Of a stretch of 41,111 nucleotides of DNA, positions 2,695-24,808 are shown in pieces (within the stretch, counting starts at the first letter, position 1; each line of letters opens with the position of its first letter). The notes under the pieces are model-generated. The model saw only the letters and a program-made list of their open reading frames with translations. It was not told the origin of the DNA and did not search any database. The translations under genes and the position numbers were made by a program. This stretch comes from a virus (lineage: Duplodnaviria; Heunggongvirae; Uroviricota; Caudoviricetes): positions 1-41,111 of IMG/VR virus record IMGVR_UViG_2724679059_000002; one strand, given 5' to 3'.

Positions 2695-3097
2695 CGTCTT
2701 TTCTCCCCGGCATTAATTCGCGTGGATTATCGGAACGGTGATAGAGCCAGATACCAATACGCACAGCGACAATTGCTGACACGAATGCGCCAGCAGAGAA
2801 AACAATCCCTTTCTCAAAAGAGTCCTGTGTGATGGTAGGGATCAGGCTGGCTATGCCAATAAGAATTGATGCTGCTGGTTTGTAAAAGAGAAGGCCGCAA
2901 ATAAAGCTGAGCACTGACAGAAGAACACGACGACGGATTGGATACTCGATAGCAGAGGTAACAAAAATCACAGCTCCGGCAAGTGAGCCCAAAGCAACTT
3001 CAGGTGGAGTCCCACCAATAACCGCAGCAAGAGAACCAACAGTAAGATACTGATTTACATGATCATTGGTTATTTGAAATGACATATCAACCACCAT
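2681..3097 (-). CDS. Holin-like multi-TM membrane protein
   Basis: 138 aa, several hydrophobic helices; first gene of the lysis cassette downstream of the tail fibre. Confidence 0.5.
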   Translation of the reverse strand: MVVDMSFQITNDHVNQYLTVGSLAAVIGGTPPEVALGSLAGAVIFVTSAIEYPIRRRVLLSVLSFICGLLFYKPAASILIGIASLIPTITQDSFEKGIVFSAGAFVSAIVAVRIGIWLYHRSDNPRELMPGRKDDGNA

Positions 3098-3236
3098 TTA
3101 ACATTCATCAAATCTCCAGTTTCTGGTAGAACACCATCAAAACCAAACCATATATGAATTATTATGTTATAAGTAAACAACAAAATCATCATTTGTGTTT
3201 TTTAGATTGCGATTTTTAGTCGCAATCTAAAAACAA

Positions 3237-5231
3237 CTAATTAACTAATGAAGGGAATGTCGTATTAATTACAAGAACTGTTCCTGACGGATAGCTCTGA
3301 ATTGTAACTTTACCGTTTGAAAGTATATTAATGAGGGCAACCGATGAATCAGTACCTGATGGAATATAAGAAATATCATTCTTTGGTCTAAACCCTTCTG
3401 GCAATACCATAATAACTGTGCCAACAGATGTATTTCCACCTGTTAAAACAGCAGATAAAGTAACAACGCCCTCGGCTGATTTCTGATATGTTCCACTTCT
3501 TGCCTCACCTACAGACCAACCATTTTGCAATATGCCACTCATATCATACTGATTACCTCGCCATGTACTCCATGTATTCTCACTAATCCTTCCAATCCTC
3601 ATTAAGCAAACGCGAGCATTATCTGAAGAATAACCATAATTTTTTTGTACTACTATTCCGTCAACAAATCTATCAACCTGAATAACACCATCAAGAGGCC
3701 AAGAAGCATCATCAGGGTTTGTTCTCCACCATGAAGTCCCCATGTGAAAAGTATTTGGCGGATATGAGCTATTGATGAATTGTATGGAAGAACCATTGTT
3801 AGAAAAAAGGTTGCTACTCCCATTTATAACAGCACACGGTCCATAAATATATTCAAATAATAATTTATGTATCTGTGCGCTAAATGTTGAGTTTGGGTGT
3901 ATTCCCCTTCCATCGCCATAAGGGTCATCAAGCCAGTTACCAGCAGATCCTCTCGAATCCTGCCACATACCGTAAGTATCAAAAAACATACACTTATATT
4001 GTTTTGCTTTGGCTCTAAGTACGGCTGTCAGCTGCTCATACCATTTTTCATCACGTCCGTTTGGTGTGTCTGATGTTGAATTTGGAGACATGATAATAAT
4101 TGATTGCTGGGCAACTGATTTATTATTTCGTAACTTTGAAAGACCTCTATCTAAAGCATCTTTTACTTGATCCAATGTATAACCATAATATGGATCGTTA
4201 ATTCCCCATCGTAAAACAATCAAATCAGCAGCAGAAAAAACAGACCATTCATGATCAATATACCAATTACCCCATTCGTATAGAGTTTTACCTGAATGGC
4301 CTAATGATGTATTTTTTACATCAATAATTCCATACCTCTTTGCATAAAAATCAGCAATAGTTGCTGGTGGCCATAATTCAGAGTTAACACCAACAATCGT
4401 GGAGTCACCAGACCACAAAATATATGTTTTCTGTGATTTATCCACGCCATCTGCTTTTATCATCTTGCTAATAACATAATTAAGATATTGGTCACCAGTT
4501 ACAAAACGGGAACGAGGGTCAGAATACGTTGTTAGTTGAACACCTTCTGTATTAAATACACGCCCCCTGCGTTGCTCAATTTCAACACCATATTCATTTA
4601 ACAATGAAGATACAATTTCATCATCTTTCATCGTAATTACAGTTTGACCGGCTATAGATAAGTTTATGGCTTGCTGTATATTATTCCCTACAGCTCCAGT
4701 TCTTGTAATATCTGGACGCAAAGTACTATCACCACCTTCTATATACCCTTCAAGATAACTTAAAGTTACTGCATCCTGAGGGCTTTCTGGATCTTTAAGA
4801 TTTCTAATCCTGTTATTTAAAGCGTCGTACCAGTTTGCAATACTTGATGGTTTGCAAAGTGCAAGACGAAACAAGCTACGACATTGTTGAATCAGCATCG
4901 TTAGCTTATCAAACGCATCCTCATGCACCTCTGCAAAGAATTTACCCTGATTACGCAGATCTGTTTCCTGAGTAACCGGGAGCTCTCGTGATATAGAGAT
5001 CTGATAACCGTTGGCCAATGCCTTCGACAGTATTATATTACCGCCTCTATAGCCTCCCGCACCAGTGACTGCGTAATCAGTATCAAGAGCCAGCACAGTG
5101 ATATTCTCGTCAAGGTCAATCACCTGCACCACCAGATCAGATTTCTGGAAAATCCTAAAGGTATAAGGGAACGTAGTTGTAACACCGTTACCTGTATATT
5201 CGTTGTGGTCAACTTCGGTTGAGACCGTCAT
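3237..5231 (-). CDS. Tail fibre/tailspike: T7-like N-terminal adaptor domain fused to SGNH/GDSL esterase-like C-terminal domain
   Basis: N-terminus MTVSTEVDHNEYTGNGVTTTFPYTF...TDYAVT aligns by eye with T7 gp17 N-terminus; C-terminal region has WSGDST (GDS motif) and a distal DxxH-like motif (GRGIHP); C-terminal DNA looks AT-rich. Confidence 0.7.
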   Translation of the reverse strand: MTVSTEVDHNEYTGNGVTTTFPYTFRIFQKSDLVVQVIDLDENITVLALDTDYAVTGAGGYRGGNIILSKALANGYQISISRELPVTQETDLRNQGKFFAEVHEDAFDKLTMLIQQCRSLFRLALCKPSSIANWYDALNNRIRNLKDPESPQDAVTLSYLEGYIEGGDSTLRPDITRTGAVGNNIQQAINLSIAGQTVITMKDDEIVSSLLNEYGVEIEQRRGRVFNTEGVQLTTYSDPRSRFVTGDQYLNYVISKMIKADGVDKSQKTYILWSGDSTIVGVNSELWPPATIADFYAKRYGIIDVKNTSLGHSGKTLYEWGNWYIDHEWSVFSAADLIVLRWGINDPYYGYTLDQVKDALDRGLSKLRNNKSVAQQSIIIMSPNSTSDTPNGRDEKWYEQLTAVLRAKAKQYKCMFFDTYGMWQDSRGSAGNWLDDPYGDGRGIHPNSTFSAQIHKLLFEYIYGPCAVINGSSNLFSNNGSSIQFINSSYPPNTFHMGTSWWRTNPDDASWPLDGVIQVDRFVDGIVVQKNYGYSSDNARVCLMRIGRISENTWSTWRGNQYDMSGILQNGWSVGEARSGTYQKSAEGVVTLSAVLTGGNTSVGTVIMVLPEGFRPKNDISYIPSGTDSSVALINILSNGKVTIQSYPSGTVLVINTTFPSLVN

Positions 5232-5684: not shown

Positions 5685-5715
5685 GGTTTGTAATTACCAA
5701 GTAGAGTGCTTATAT

Positions 5716-5730
5716 TTACCTCTGCGGTAA
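5716..5730. promoter_or_regulatory. Operator-like palindrome TTACC-N5-GGTAA
   Basis: TTACCTCTGCGGTAA between the small antirepressor-like gene and the Bro-N gene. Confidence 0.4.
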
Positions 5731-5999
5731 ATTTACATCGCACTCCTCTTGTGCCATAGTAATCGGGCACTGGCAAAATCCAGTGCCGGGATTGGCGTCC
5801 CGATTTACTAAGTGGCGCATACCACGCCAGACGTGGTTTTTTTATGCGTTAAGCACAGCTATATCCGAATTATGGTGGGCTGGGCAGGGGTCCGAAAGGA
5901 CGCCGGTACCACTTAGGCCGGTACGCCAACCTTGTCCAGTTCACCACCAGTAATTGGCGTTGCGGTGGTGATTAAAATCACTAAGTGGAGATAACCACC

Positions 6000-6710
6000 A
6001 TGGCTAATGCTCAAACTGCCATCTTCAAATTTGAATCTGTTAACCCTATCCGTTCCATCATTATCGATGGCCAACCATGGTTTGTAGCCCAAGACGTTTG
6101 TAGTGCGCTGCGTATCCAAAACGTCACCCAAGCACTTGAAAAACTGGATGATGATGAAAGGTCTATGTTCAACATAGGGCATGAACATCGTGCAATTTTT
6201 GACAGCCGAGTAAAAGAGATCAACATCATCTCCGAGTCAGGCCTCTACACACTGATCCTCCGCTGCCGCGACGCAGTGACACCAGGCACTATCCCCTACC
6301 GCTTTCGTAAATGGGTTACAGGTGAGGTTCTTCCTCTGATCCGCCGCACTGGAAGTTACATTAAAAACTCGCTCCCGCAGGAAGAACGCATAAAGATGGT
6401 TGCCGACCAGGTAGCCAACGCCACGGCGTCAGCAGTAATGCAGGCAATGAAGATAGAGAACAAAACCTACAGCGCCCCACTGAAGCCCGGATACCGCAGC
6501 CTGATTCATTCTCCGTCTGGTGTTCTCGGCCTGACGGAGAACTCACTGCTGATGAATCTGCTGAACCAGTTACAGGAAGACGGGCACGACGTATCTGGCG
6601 CGGCGGCGGAGCTGACCACCATGTTCTGCTACATCGTTGGTGTGAGCAAATGCCTGCGTGATATCCAGACTCACGCGGAGTATATCAACGACAAAGCAGG
6701 GTTCTTCTGA
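6000..6710 (+). CDS. Bro-N domain protein (phage antirepressor-like) with C-terminal domain
   Basis: N-terminus FKFESVNPIRSIIIDGQPWFVAQDVCSAL matches the Bro-N pattern; RBS ggag upstream; C-terminal domain paralogous to 5427..5684. Confidence 0.65.
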   Translation: MANAQTAIFKFESVNPIRSIIIDGQPWFVAQDVCSALRIQNVTQALEKLDDDERSMFNIGHEHRAIFDSRVKEINIISESGLYTLILRCRDAVTPGTIPYRFRKWVTGEVLPLIRRTGSYIKNSLPQEERIKMVADQVANATASAVMQAMKIENKTYSAPLKPGYRSLIHSPSGVLGLTENSLLMNLLNQLQEDGHDVSGAAAELTTMFCYIVGVSKCLRDIQTHAEYINDKAGFF

Positions 6711-6850: not shown

Positions 6851-7030
6851 ATGCGAAACGAAAAATTGCAGATGCGTAGAGCGCAAGCTGCCGCAAGACG
6901 TTCTTTCAATGGAAGCGTAGAGTACGTAAAAGTTACTATGACAAAAGATCACGCAAGTCGCGTATCCAGCGCTTTCTTTGATTCTCGTAACAATAAGGAA
7001 AATTATGAGTTTGTCTGCGTCGCAGAATGA
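6851..7030 (+). CDS. Small basic protein, candidate antitoxin-like partner (below the 60-aa track threshold)
   Basis: ATG at 6851 with SD tgagg 7 nt upstream; 59 codons; overlaps the start of the YafO-like gene by 26 nt in a different frame; Arg-rich N-terminus followed by a VKVTMTKDHASRVSSAF segment that could be a ribbon-helix-helix strand-helix. Confidence 0.3.
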   Translation: MRNEKLQMRRAQAAARRSFNGSVEYVKVTMTKDHASRVSSAFFDSRNNKENYEFVCVAE

Positions 7031-7550
7031 TAAAAATCAAATTGTCAGATATAAGGGTCGAGTATTGCATACGCAAAATTTCTCGGCCCTTTGTGCATCT
7101 GATCTTGAGCTGAAGAAAGTATCTGATGCATTTACCCAGTATTGGAAAACGGGATACCATCCATCTCTTGGTAAAGATGCCGCATTTGCTCGTCCGACAG
7201 AAATGCTTAAACTAAATGTCAGGCATACTCATGTCGATAACCAAGACTATATTCCAGAAGATAGTGATAAAAAACACACTGGTAAAAAATCATCCTGGGA
7301 TGCATGGAAAAATATAGCGTCTGTACAAGTAAAATGCATACCAACAAGTGATTGCTTTTTAGTTTATTCGGTAAATCACAATCGTGATGCGCTGGTTATG
7401 TTTTTTGTTGACGCAGATGCTCACAACATAACTGAGCAAGAAGAGTTTAAAGAGGCAGCAATCACTATCAGTTATCAATTCTTTGAGAAAACAAAAACAA
7501 AACCAATGCCTTTAGAAGAAGATCTTTTTTCTGATAAATGGAAGGAATAG
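7005..7550 (+). CDS. YafO-family toxin-like protein (ribosome-dependent mRNA interferase family)
   Basis: Aligns by eye with E. coli YafO: GKDAAFARPTEMLKLNVRHTHV vs GRDALYDDSFTWPLIKFERVAHIHL, and CFLVYSVN...ALVMFFVDADAHN vs AHLVYCQG...AWLLIAILKPEPHK; RBS aagga 5 nt before ATG; AT-rich. Confidence 0.55.
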   Translation: MSLSASQNDKNQIVRYKGRVLHTQNFSALCASDLELKKVSDAFTQYWKTGYHPSLGKDAAFARPTEMLKLNVRHTHVDNQDYIPEDSDKKHTGKKSSWDAWKNIASVQVKCIPTSDCFLVYSVNHNRDALVMFFVDADAHNITEQEEFKEAAITISYQFFEKTKTKPMPLEEDLFSDKWKE

Positions 7551-24731: not shown

Positions 24732-24808
24732 GTGGCATTAGCTCAGTTGGACAGAGCAACCGCCTTCTAAGCGGTTGGTCGCAGGTTCGAATCCTGCATG
24801 CCACGCCA
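24732..24808 (+). tRNA. tRNA-Arg (anticodon UCU), phage-encoded
   Basis: Full cloverleaf: acceptor GUGGCAU/AUGCCAC, D-arm gctc-agttggaca-gagc, anticodon stem accgc/gcggt with loop cuUCUaa, T-arm gcagg-ttcgaat-cctgc, discriminator G and encoded CCA; close to E. coli argU in the arms. Confidence 0.9.

Follow-up and report, generated by a model that had tools for sequence, protein, structure and literature searches.

The window analysed here, a stretch of 41,111 nucleotides, begins at its left end in E. coli chromosomal sequence carrying yfgH and yfgI and continues as an epsilon15-like prophage up to the integrase on the guaA side, with the insertion site of the prophage lying between yfgI and guaA of the E. 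coli chromosome. Its portal, capsid, tail and injection genes are followed by a small moron island, the tailspike ORF and then the lysis genes (two holins, a GH19 endolysin and a DUF2514 protein). The tailspike ORF thus lies where the tailspike gene of epsilon15 lies, between the tail and injection genes and the lysis cassette, and it is the sole receptor-binding-protein candidate of the prophage. It is a single intact reading frame of 664 codons on the minus strand (3237..5231), with an ATG start and a UAG stop at 3237-3239, and the ORF list shows nothing else of 60 aa or longer that overlaps it on the plus or the minus strand.

PHROG 1640 ("tail protein") matches aa 1-162 of the product (E 1.6e-111), while a search of the protein against NCBIfam returned no family match. 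The prophage region is 99.6% identical to a region of E. coli OkiPb01711, in which the corresponding gene, likewise 99.6% identical, is annotated in RefSeq as "SGNH/GDSL hydrolase family protein". The exact allele is rare, being present in two of 5,426 complete E. coli genomes, both of bovine origin; a serotype, O84:H2, is known for one host only. The features of the locus are as follows.

3237..5231, minus strand: whole tailspike gene (ORF list; PHROG 1640; annotated near-identical E. coli gene).
4713..5231, minus strand: virion-docking adaptor of the Uetakevirus tailspike type, aa 1-173 (identity to epsilon15, phiV10 and TL-2011b; PDB 8ck1; hhalign against T7 gp17-N).
4446..4712, minus strand: conserved neck, aa 174-262, which starts the cassette at the junction ...STLRP-DITRTGAVG..., cut between P and D (BLASTP and blastn boundaries).
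3822..4445, minus strand: SGNH/GDSL hydrolase domain, aa 263-470 (PF13472 above cut-off; invariant residues; AF2; Foldseek; PDB profile match).
3240..3821, minus strand: C-terminal beta-sandwich "head", aa 471-664, a putative distal saccharide- or receptor-binding knob (predicted structure; knob-like neighbours).
3098..3236, no strand assigned: spacer of 139 bp, 27-29% GC, part of the imported segment (fine GC profile; blastn).

Because the protein consists of an adaptor, a neck, an SGNH domain and a head, it is more than the simple fusion of an adaptor to an esterase as which it had been described in the first-pass annotation.

The adaptor is made up of a beta domain (aa 9-82) followed by helices and a kink. 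Its N-terminal 160-178 residues or so are most closely related to the tailspikes of epsilon15, phiV10, TL-2011b and SPN1S (74-85% identity): aa 1-178 of epsilon15 gp20 are 74% identical to it, and the phiV10 and TL-2011b tailspikes are 78-85% identical. The tail-fibre N-domain in PDB 8ck1, a solved podovirus tail, also matches (phmmer E 4e-27, Foldseek E 1e-9). The proposal that the first 150 or so residues resemble T7 gp17 was borne out as remote homology, but not as the closest affinity. Pfam Phage_T7_tail (PF03906) aligns collinearly with aa 11-161 (model positions 10-149 of 157, E 4.6e-4), although its 20.3 bits fall below the gathering score of 25.2, and BLASTP of the adaptor against T7 gp17 gave no significant match. 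A profile of 11 N-terminal sequences, by contrast, aligned with residues 1-170 of T7 gp17 in hhalign at a probability of 94.6% (11-162 against 10-156, 139 collinear columns) and in hmmsearch at E 5e-9. From these sequence comparisons, the adaptor is assigned specifically to the epsilon15/Uetakevirus type, with T7 gp17-N as a remote collinear homologue that is visible by profile methods only.

Exchangeable AT-rich cassette

Beyond the adaptor, the gene changes in both composition and affiliation. Codons 174-664 have a GC content of 37.1% and a GC3 of 24.6%, against 43.2% GC in the adaptor part and about 50% across the remaining prophage, and the GC profile therefore confirms the AT-richness that had been noted for the C-terminal coding region. 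BLASTP similarity to homologues with other adaptors starts at aa 174-177, whatever lies upstream, and in a blastn comparison with a P22-type allele similarity begins exactly at nucleotide 519 of the gene, that is, at codon 174. The neck that opens the cassette contains several nearly invariant residues (N212, G215, G223, G230, G246 and Y249) and is modelled with a pLDDT of 64-87.

The cassette is portable. It was found on at least five other adaptor types with a fixed junction: on the P22 head-binding adaptor in a classic P22-like prophage (P0002, 79% identical), on TSP1/gp66 N-domain adaptors in lambda-like siphoviral prophages, on a tail-collar fibre domain in Vibrio and on bona fide T7-tail domains. 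These placements, together with the nucleotide homology to the P22-type allele from codon 174 onward, substantiate the earlier suggestion of a swapped module. An exhaustive search among 50%-identity cluster representatives recovered 838 relatives of the cassette, 248 of them at E <1e-30; most of the 838 span both the SGNH and head domains, with N-termini of varying length. The nearest relative in an isolated phage is 33% identical.

Downstream of the gene, blastn homology to an epsilon15-like locus (L008) resumes only at the holin start, position 3097. Because the cassette starts at codon 174 and homology resumes at the holin start codon, the imported segment is placed at 3098-4712 and includes the spacer. 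A perfect 14-bp inverted repeat lies within the spacer right after the stop codon (3200-3232) and folds as RNA at -18.6 kcal/mol (z -3.35). As a terminator for the tailspike gene it was set aside: the hairpin is without a U-run, and a scan of the region after the gene found no canonical terminator.

Among the nine homologous loci whose downstream genes were compared, a sample taken without a control set, five carry a gene of O-acetyltransferase type (AT3 and/or periplasmic SGNH) immediately downstream of the spike.

L006 and L013: AT3 acyltransferase and a small SGNH protein.
L010: AT3-SGNH fusion of the OafA/OafB type.
L009 and L011: small SGNH protein alone.

Identity among the four small SGNH proteins is 56-75%, each of them starts with a signal-peptide-like sequence, and the backbones that combine a spike with such a neighbour are lambda-like, T7-like and epsilon15-like. 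Searches of the window with tblastn and blastn found no AT3 or small-SGNH gene or remnant.

SGNH and head domains

The assignment of aa 263-470 to the SGNH superfamily is supported by profiles and by predicted structure. Pfam Lipase_GDSL_2 (PF13472) matches aa 275-448 over model positions 3-173 of 178 (E 8e-15, 56.2 bits against a cut-off of 32.9), and a profile search of the PDB matched SGNH esterases at E 3e-8. The AF2 model, which like all structure models here is of a monomer, shows an alpha/beta/alpha fold with pLDDT >90 over aa 269-470, and Foldseek matches the domain to TesA, Axe2, EstL5 and other GDSL esterases (E 4e-8 to 1e-6, target TM 0.6-0.77). The top fold matches in the PDB also include Moo19 gp82 and B2 gp48/49, solved spikes of Shigella phages. 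The SGNH fold that the first-pass annotation had proposed from motifs is thus predicted with high confidence. A beta-helix depolymerase body is absent from the model of the tailspike.

The roughly 190 residues that follow (aa 471-664) are predicted with confidence (pLDDT 91.8) as a beta-sandwich of their own, a domain that the first-pass annotation had overlooked. In structure it comes closest to distal receptor-binding domains, listed here with their structural-match values.

Knob of the Pseudomonas phage Pa223 tail needle (9nxp): 14.9.
Receptor-binding protein gp15 of Listeria phage PSA (6r5w): 13.5.
Receptor-binding protein heads of lactococcal phages (p2/TP901-1/bIL170): 8.5-9.8.
Reovirus sigma1 and adenovirus fibre knobs: 5-7.

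Like the head and knob domains of phage receptor-binding proteins, the domain has a beta-sandwich head fold and lies distally on the fibre, although its sequence identity to the Pa223, PSA gp15 and lactococcal heads is 11-23%. The known heads follow a simple shoulder or neck, whereas this one follows an enzyme domain.

The SGNH motifs are GDST at 275-278, GHSG at 311-314, GIND at 343-346 and a block V that reads D440-G-R-G-I-H445-P; GDST also occurs, by chance, at 167 in the linker. The blocks were aligned with those of TesA, whose residues we take to be S10, G44, N73 and H157, and the same block assignments follow from the Pfam and PDB alignments. The codons of the four block residues, each an invariant column in an alignment of 60 homologues reaching down to about 25% identity, are located as follows.

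4401-4403, minus strand: Ser277.
4299-4301, minus strand: Gly311.
4197-4199, minus strand: Asn345.
3897-3899, minus strand: His445.

Ser277, Gly311, Asn345 and His445 are present in 60 of the 60 homologues, and D276, T278, G281, G343, I344, D346 and P446 are invariant in the same alignment. Of the GDSx and DxxH-like motifs that had been noted, the former is thus confirmed at 275-278, but a literal DxxH is absent from the whole protein: the position three residues before the histidine, occupied by the catalytic Asp in canonical SGNH enzymes, is Arg442 here and Arg in 59 of the 60 sequences. Conservation of a Ser/His/Asp triad accordingly holds for Ser277 and His445 and fails for the canonical Asp, and the triad acid is left without its canonical residue. 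The outcome named as refuting in the first-pass annotation, no predicted SGNH fold and no conserved catalytic residues, did not arise, and all three elements of its interpretation stand with refinements. D435 (conserved in 60/60) and D440 (59/60) both lie near His445 and are, by sequence, candidates for the triad acid.

The substitution at this position might be taken to mean that the SGNH domain has little or no catalytic activity and only binds carbohydrate, with recognition through the SGNH cleft, the head or both. The prevalence of the Arg among the homologues and the presence of a dedicated head that might serve for binding are compatible with such a role. This alternative is nevertheless judged quite improbable, because selection for catalysis would be expected to leave just such an invariant Ser, Gly, Asn and His in homologues as distant as about 25% identity. 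Furthermore, active SGNH enzymes that work with a Ser-His dyad or a water-mediated triad are known, according to titles of published studies and a cited reference to Wei et al. (1995).

Proposed function

Family membership and context suggest that the SGNH domain acts as a deacetylase. The ORF probably encodes a trimeric virion spike of an epsilon15-like temperate podovirus that binds and de-O-acetylates O-antigen or capsule, a reading adopted because of the domain architecture, the conservation of the catalytic residues and the analogy with characterised spikes. In this prophage, the usual sugar-cutting part of an epsilon15-like tailspike is replaced by an AT-rich cassette of a predicted sugar-deacetylating esterase and a putative receptor-binding knob. 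Counted against a deacetylating spike are the Arg at the position three residues before the histidine, the lack of profile kinship to G7C gp63.1 and the distance (33% identity) to the nearest cassette in an isolated phage.

In the proposed mechanism, the adaptor (aa 1-173) would attach the spike, presumably a trimer, to the tail hub in the manner of epsilon15 gp20, and the neck (aa 174-262) would open the horizontally exchanged cassette that runs to aa 664, in which aa 263-470 would serve as the SGNH esterase domain and aa 471-664 as the terminal receptor-binding domain. The head, the esterase cleft or both may first bind O-acetylated surface polysaccharide, either O-antigen or capsule. Ser277 and His445, with an oxyanion hole formed by Gly311 and Asn345, would then hydrolyse the O-acetyl ester and leave the glycan backbone uncut. 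Cycles of binding and deacetylation may finally bring the virion to the outer membrane, as has been shown for G7C gp63.1 and PP99 gp55.

An active virion esterase might instead act on another substrate, such as O-acetylated peptidoglycan (as Ape-like enzymes do), an LPS or phospholipid acyl chain, or another ester, for example a substituent of the O84 antigen with its unusual phosphate. The best fold matches in the PDB include TesA, a thioesterase and lysophospholipase, and the only serotyped host is O84, the O-antigen of which contains a sugar-phosphate (phosphodiester) linkage. Against this, the SGNH domain lies in the distal part of the tailspike beside a receptor-binding knob, acetyl groups of surface polysaccharides are the target of every phage SGNH spike characterised so far, and relatives of the spike are genetically linked to AT3-type O-acetyltransferases. 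Such a substrate is considered about as improbable as the loss of catalysis discussed above.

The same fold and the same neighbours could also be read as pointing to an acetyltransferase rather than a hydrolase, since the SGNH fold is common to transferases such as the SGNH domains of OafA/OafB, PatB and AlgX, and AT3 and SGNH genes adjoin the homologues; alternatively, the protein might be a moron product that is not part of the virion. Both versions are extremely unlikely, as an acetyl donor is unavailable outside the cell, the protein carries a bona fide tailspike adaptor and is encoded by the only receptor-binding-protein candidate gene of the prophage, and the signal peptide and AT3 partner are absent in the window.

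A wider role for a deacetylating spike can be imagined, although it is rather unlikely: in an arms race in which O-acetyl groups on O-antigen are written and erased, the cassette family might supply the "eraser". The idea starts from the seroconversion-type module, with a membrane AT3 acyltransferase, a small SGNH protein or a fusion of both, that accompanies the spike in five of the nine relatives. The spike would then strip acetyl marks that were installed by a prophage or by the host and that block other phages or, alternatively, would recognise the mark that its own lineage writes. Block V with its Arg would define a mechanistically distinct SGNH subfamily, and the prophage in the window would be a variant from which the writer has been lost. 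The adjacency of acetyltransferase-type genes in relatives is the sole element of the analysis that could lead to something new.

Comparison with known spikes

Spikes that combine a T7-like N-domain with an SGNH region (PPWS4, PP47, Q19 and PP99) and SGNH receptor-binding proteins of prophages have already been published, and the tailspike is therefore an ordinary addition to a known class. Its exact junction, its non-canonical block V and its joining of adaptor, cassette and head in a Uetakevirus setting add detail in small increments. In practice, its usefulness is modest. An entry that stands in databases as "SGNH/GDSL hydrolase family protein" or "hypothetical" becomes the predicted host-range determinant of an epsilon15-like prophage of bovine STEC-type E. 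coli, and the cassette bounds (from aa 174 through the stop codon, spacer included) may be usable for swaps of receptor-binding modules among P22-, epsilon15-, lambda- and T7-type phages. The spike also offers an E. coli example for the emerging view that temperate phages often deacetylate surface polysaccharide rather than depolymerise it.

The tailspikes of epsilon15 (gp20) and phiV10 share with this protein the adaptor (74-79% over aa 1-165/178), the gene position and the prophage type. epsilon15 gp20, however, is a beta-helix protein of 1070 aa (Pfam Beta_helix) with no similarity to the tailspike beyond aa 178. A 2026 preprint refers in its title to a protruding esterase domain in epsilon15 gp20; this reported "petal" was considered as a counterpart of the SGNH domain and rejected, as the two have no sequence similarity.

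Among SGNH enzymes of virions, G7C gp63.1 is described as an esterase that removes O-acetyl groups from O-antigen and is needed for infection (Prokhorov et al., 2017, as cited in PMC13123978). The GDS, G, GxND and H blocks are common to G7C gp63.1 and the tailspike, whereas block V is the canonical D-T-T-H in the former and D-G-R-G-I-H in the latter, and gp63.1 attaches via gp66 on an N4-like virion whereas the tailspike attaches via a T7/epsilon15-type adaptor. Membership of a gp63.1-type family was examined and rejected: BLASTP and tblastn gave no match, hhalign gave a probability of 0.5% (E 0.11), and only the superfamily is held in common. Because BLASTP and hhalign show superfamily blocks only, the label "G7C-type" was dropped.

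Viral structural relatives include PPWS4, Q19, PP99 gp55, Possum, Vi06 and the K30 SGNH protein. Of these, gp55 of Pectobacterium phage PP99 is a podoviral trimeric spike for which NMR showed deacetylation of the host O-polysaccharide with no depolymerisation (PMC6989608). It is related to the tailspike in structure (BFVD E 7e-10) but has no sequence similarity to it in tblastn, and it belongs to the G7C-like SGNH lineage. In receptor-binding proteins of Klebsiella prophages, an SGNH esterase takes the place of the depolymerase, and two of these proteins are active on pNP-acetate (PMC13123978); gp82 of Shigella phage Moo19 and gp48/49 of B2 are likewise active esterases (PMC11654681). The hosts and adaptors of the Klebsiella proteins and the Moo19 and B2 spikes differ from those of the tailspike.

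The Pektosvirus and Q19 tail spikes of Pectobacterium Autographiviridae (PPWS4, PP47, PP81 and Q19) join a T7-like N-domain to an SGNH region, and horizontal transfer has been proposed for them (PMC7693777). PPWS4, one of the top viral matches by structure (BFVD E 4e-42), is 29-30% identical over aa 136-548 of the tailspike; the match ends at 548, and the head may differ. PPWS4-type spikes are carried by lytic T7-like phages of plant pathogens, whereas the tailspike stands on the backbone of a temperate epsilon15-like E. coli prophage, yet both follow the two-part plan that the first-pass annotation had described, with the SGNH hydrolase region placed after a T7-like N-domain.

O-acetylation-type genes beside homologous tailspikes

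Comparison of the homologous loci revealed that one or more O-acetylation-type genes lie directly 3' of the SGNH tailspike gene in five of nine cases, on lambda-like, T7-like and epsilon15-like backbones. Three downstream arrangements were found: an AT3 acyltransferase together with a small SGNH protein, an OafA-like AT3-SGNH fusion, and a small SGNH protein by itself. Each small SGNH protein has a signal-peptide-like N-terminus, and pairwise identity among them is 56-75%.

Genes directly downstream of the tailspike in homologous loci
L006 10055-11876, AT3 acyltransferase and small SGNH protein
L013 7008-8673, AT3 acyltransferase and small SGNH protein
L010 8373-10325, AT3-SGNH fusion
L009 8019-8753, small SGNH protein
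L011 6891-7532, small SGNH protein

The recurrence of this adjacency suggests that an O-acetylation "writer" co-travels with the putative deacetylase spike; no such writer gene is present in the window.

Sequence features of the tailspike gene and its 3' flank

A further GDST motif occurs at aa 167-170 of the tailspike (window 4731-4742), in a low-confidence linker just ahead of the junction with the cassette. This copy does not show the conservation of an SGNH block and probably arose by chance, though it could misdirect a motif-based reading of the protein.

Directly after the tailspike stop codon, within the spacer of 27-29% GC, lies a perfect 14-bp inverted repeat (window 3200-3232), the RNA form of which folds at -18.6 kcal/mol (z -3.35). 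Because it lacks a U-run, a canonical intrinsic terminator was ruled out here in either direction.

Accessory genes and the moron island

Several further features were located in the prophage, the two RNAs by gathering-score matches to Rfam and the toxin gene by a Pfam match just above the cut-off.

Accessory features in the window
5767-5843, + strand, isrK Hfq-binding sRNA (68.3 bits)
5868-5951, + strand, C4 antisense RNA (66 bits)
5985-6710, BRO-N/antirepressor-like gene, in the moron island adjoining the tailspike
6978-7550, + strand, YafO-family type II toxin gene (25.7 bits)
24732-24808, + strand, prophage-borne tRNA-Arg (anticodon TCT)

The toxin gene occupies a low-GC patch (37%) with tail genes on one side and the tailspike on the other, and the tRNA gene is flanked by portal-side genes and the terminase region. 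In E. coli OkiPb01711 (O84:H2, stx1a, eae+), the tailspike and BRO-N genes of the prophage are separated by an additional hypothetical gene of 729 nt (L001 22707-23435). Judged by coordinate offset, this gene appears to be missing from the window at ~5700-5985; the two prophages are otherwise 99.6% identical. The BRO-N/antirepressor-like gene has both RNA matches directly upstream, and together the three elements look like a c4/isrK-ant immunity module of the P1/P7 or Gifsy type.
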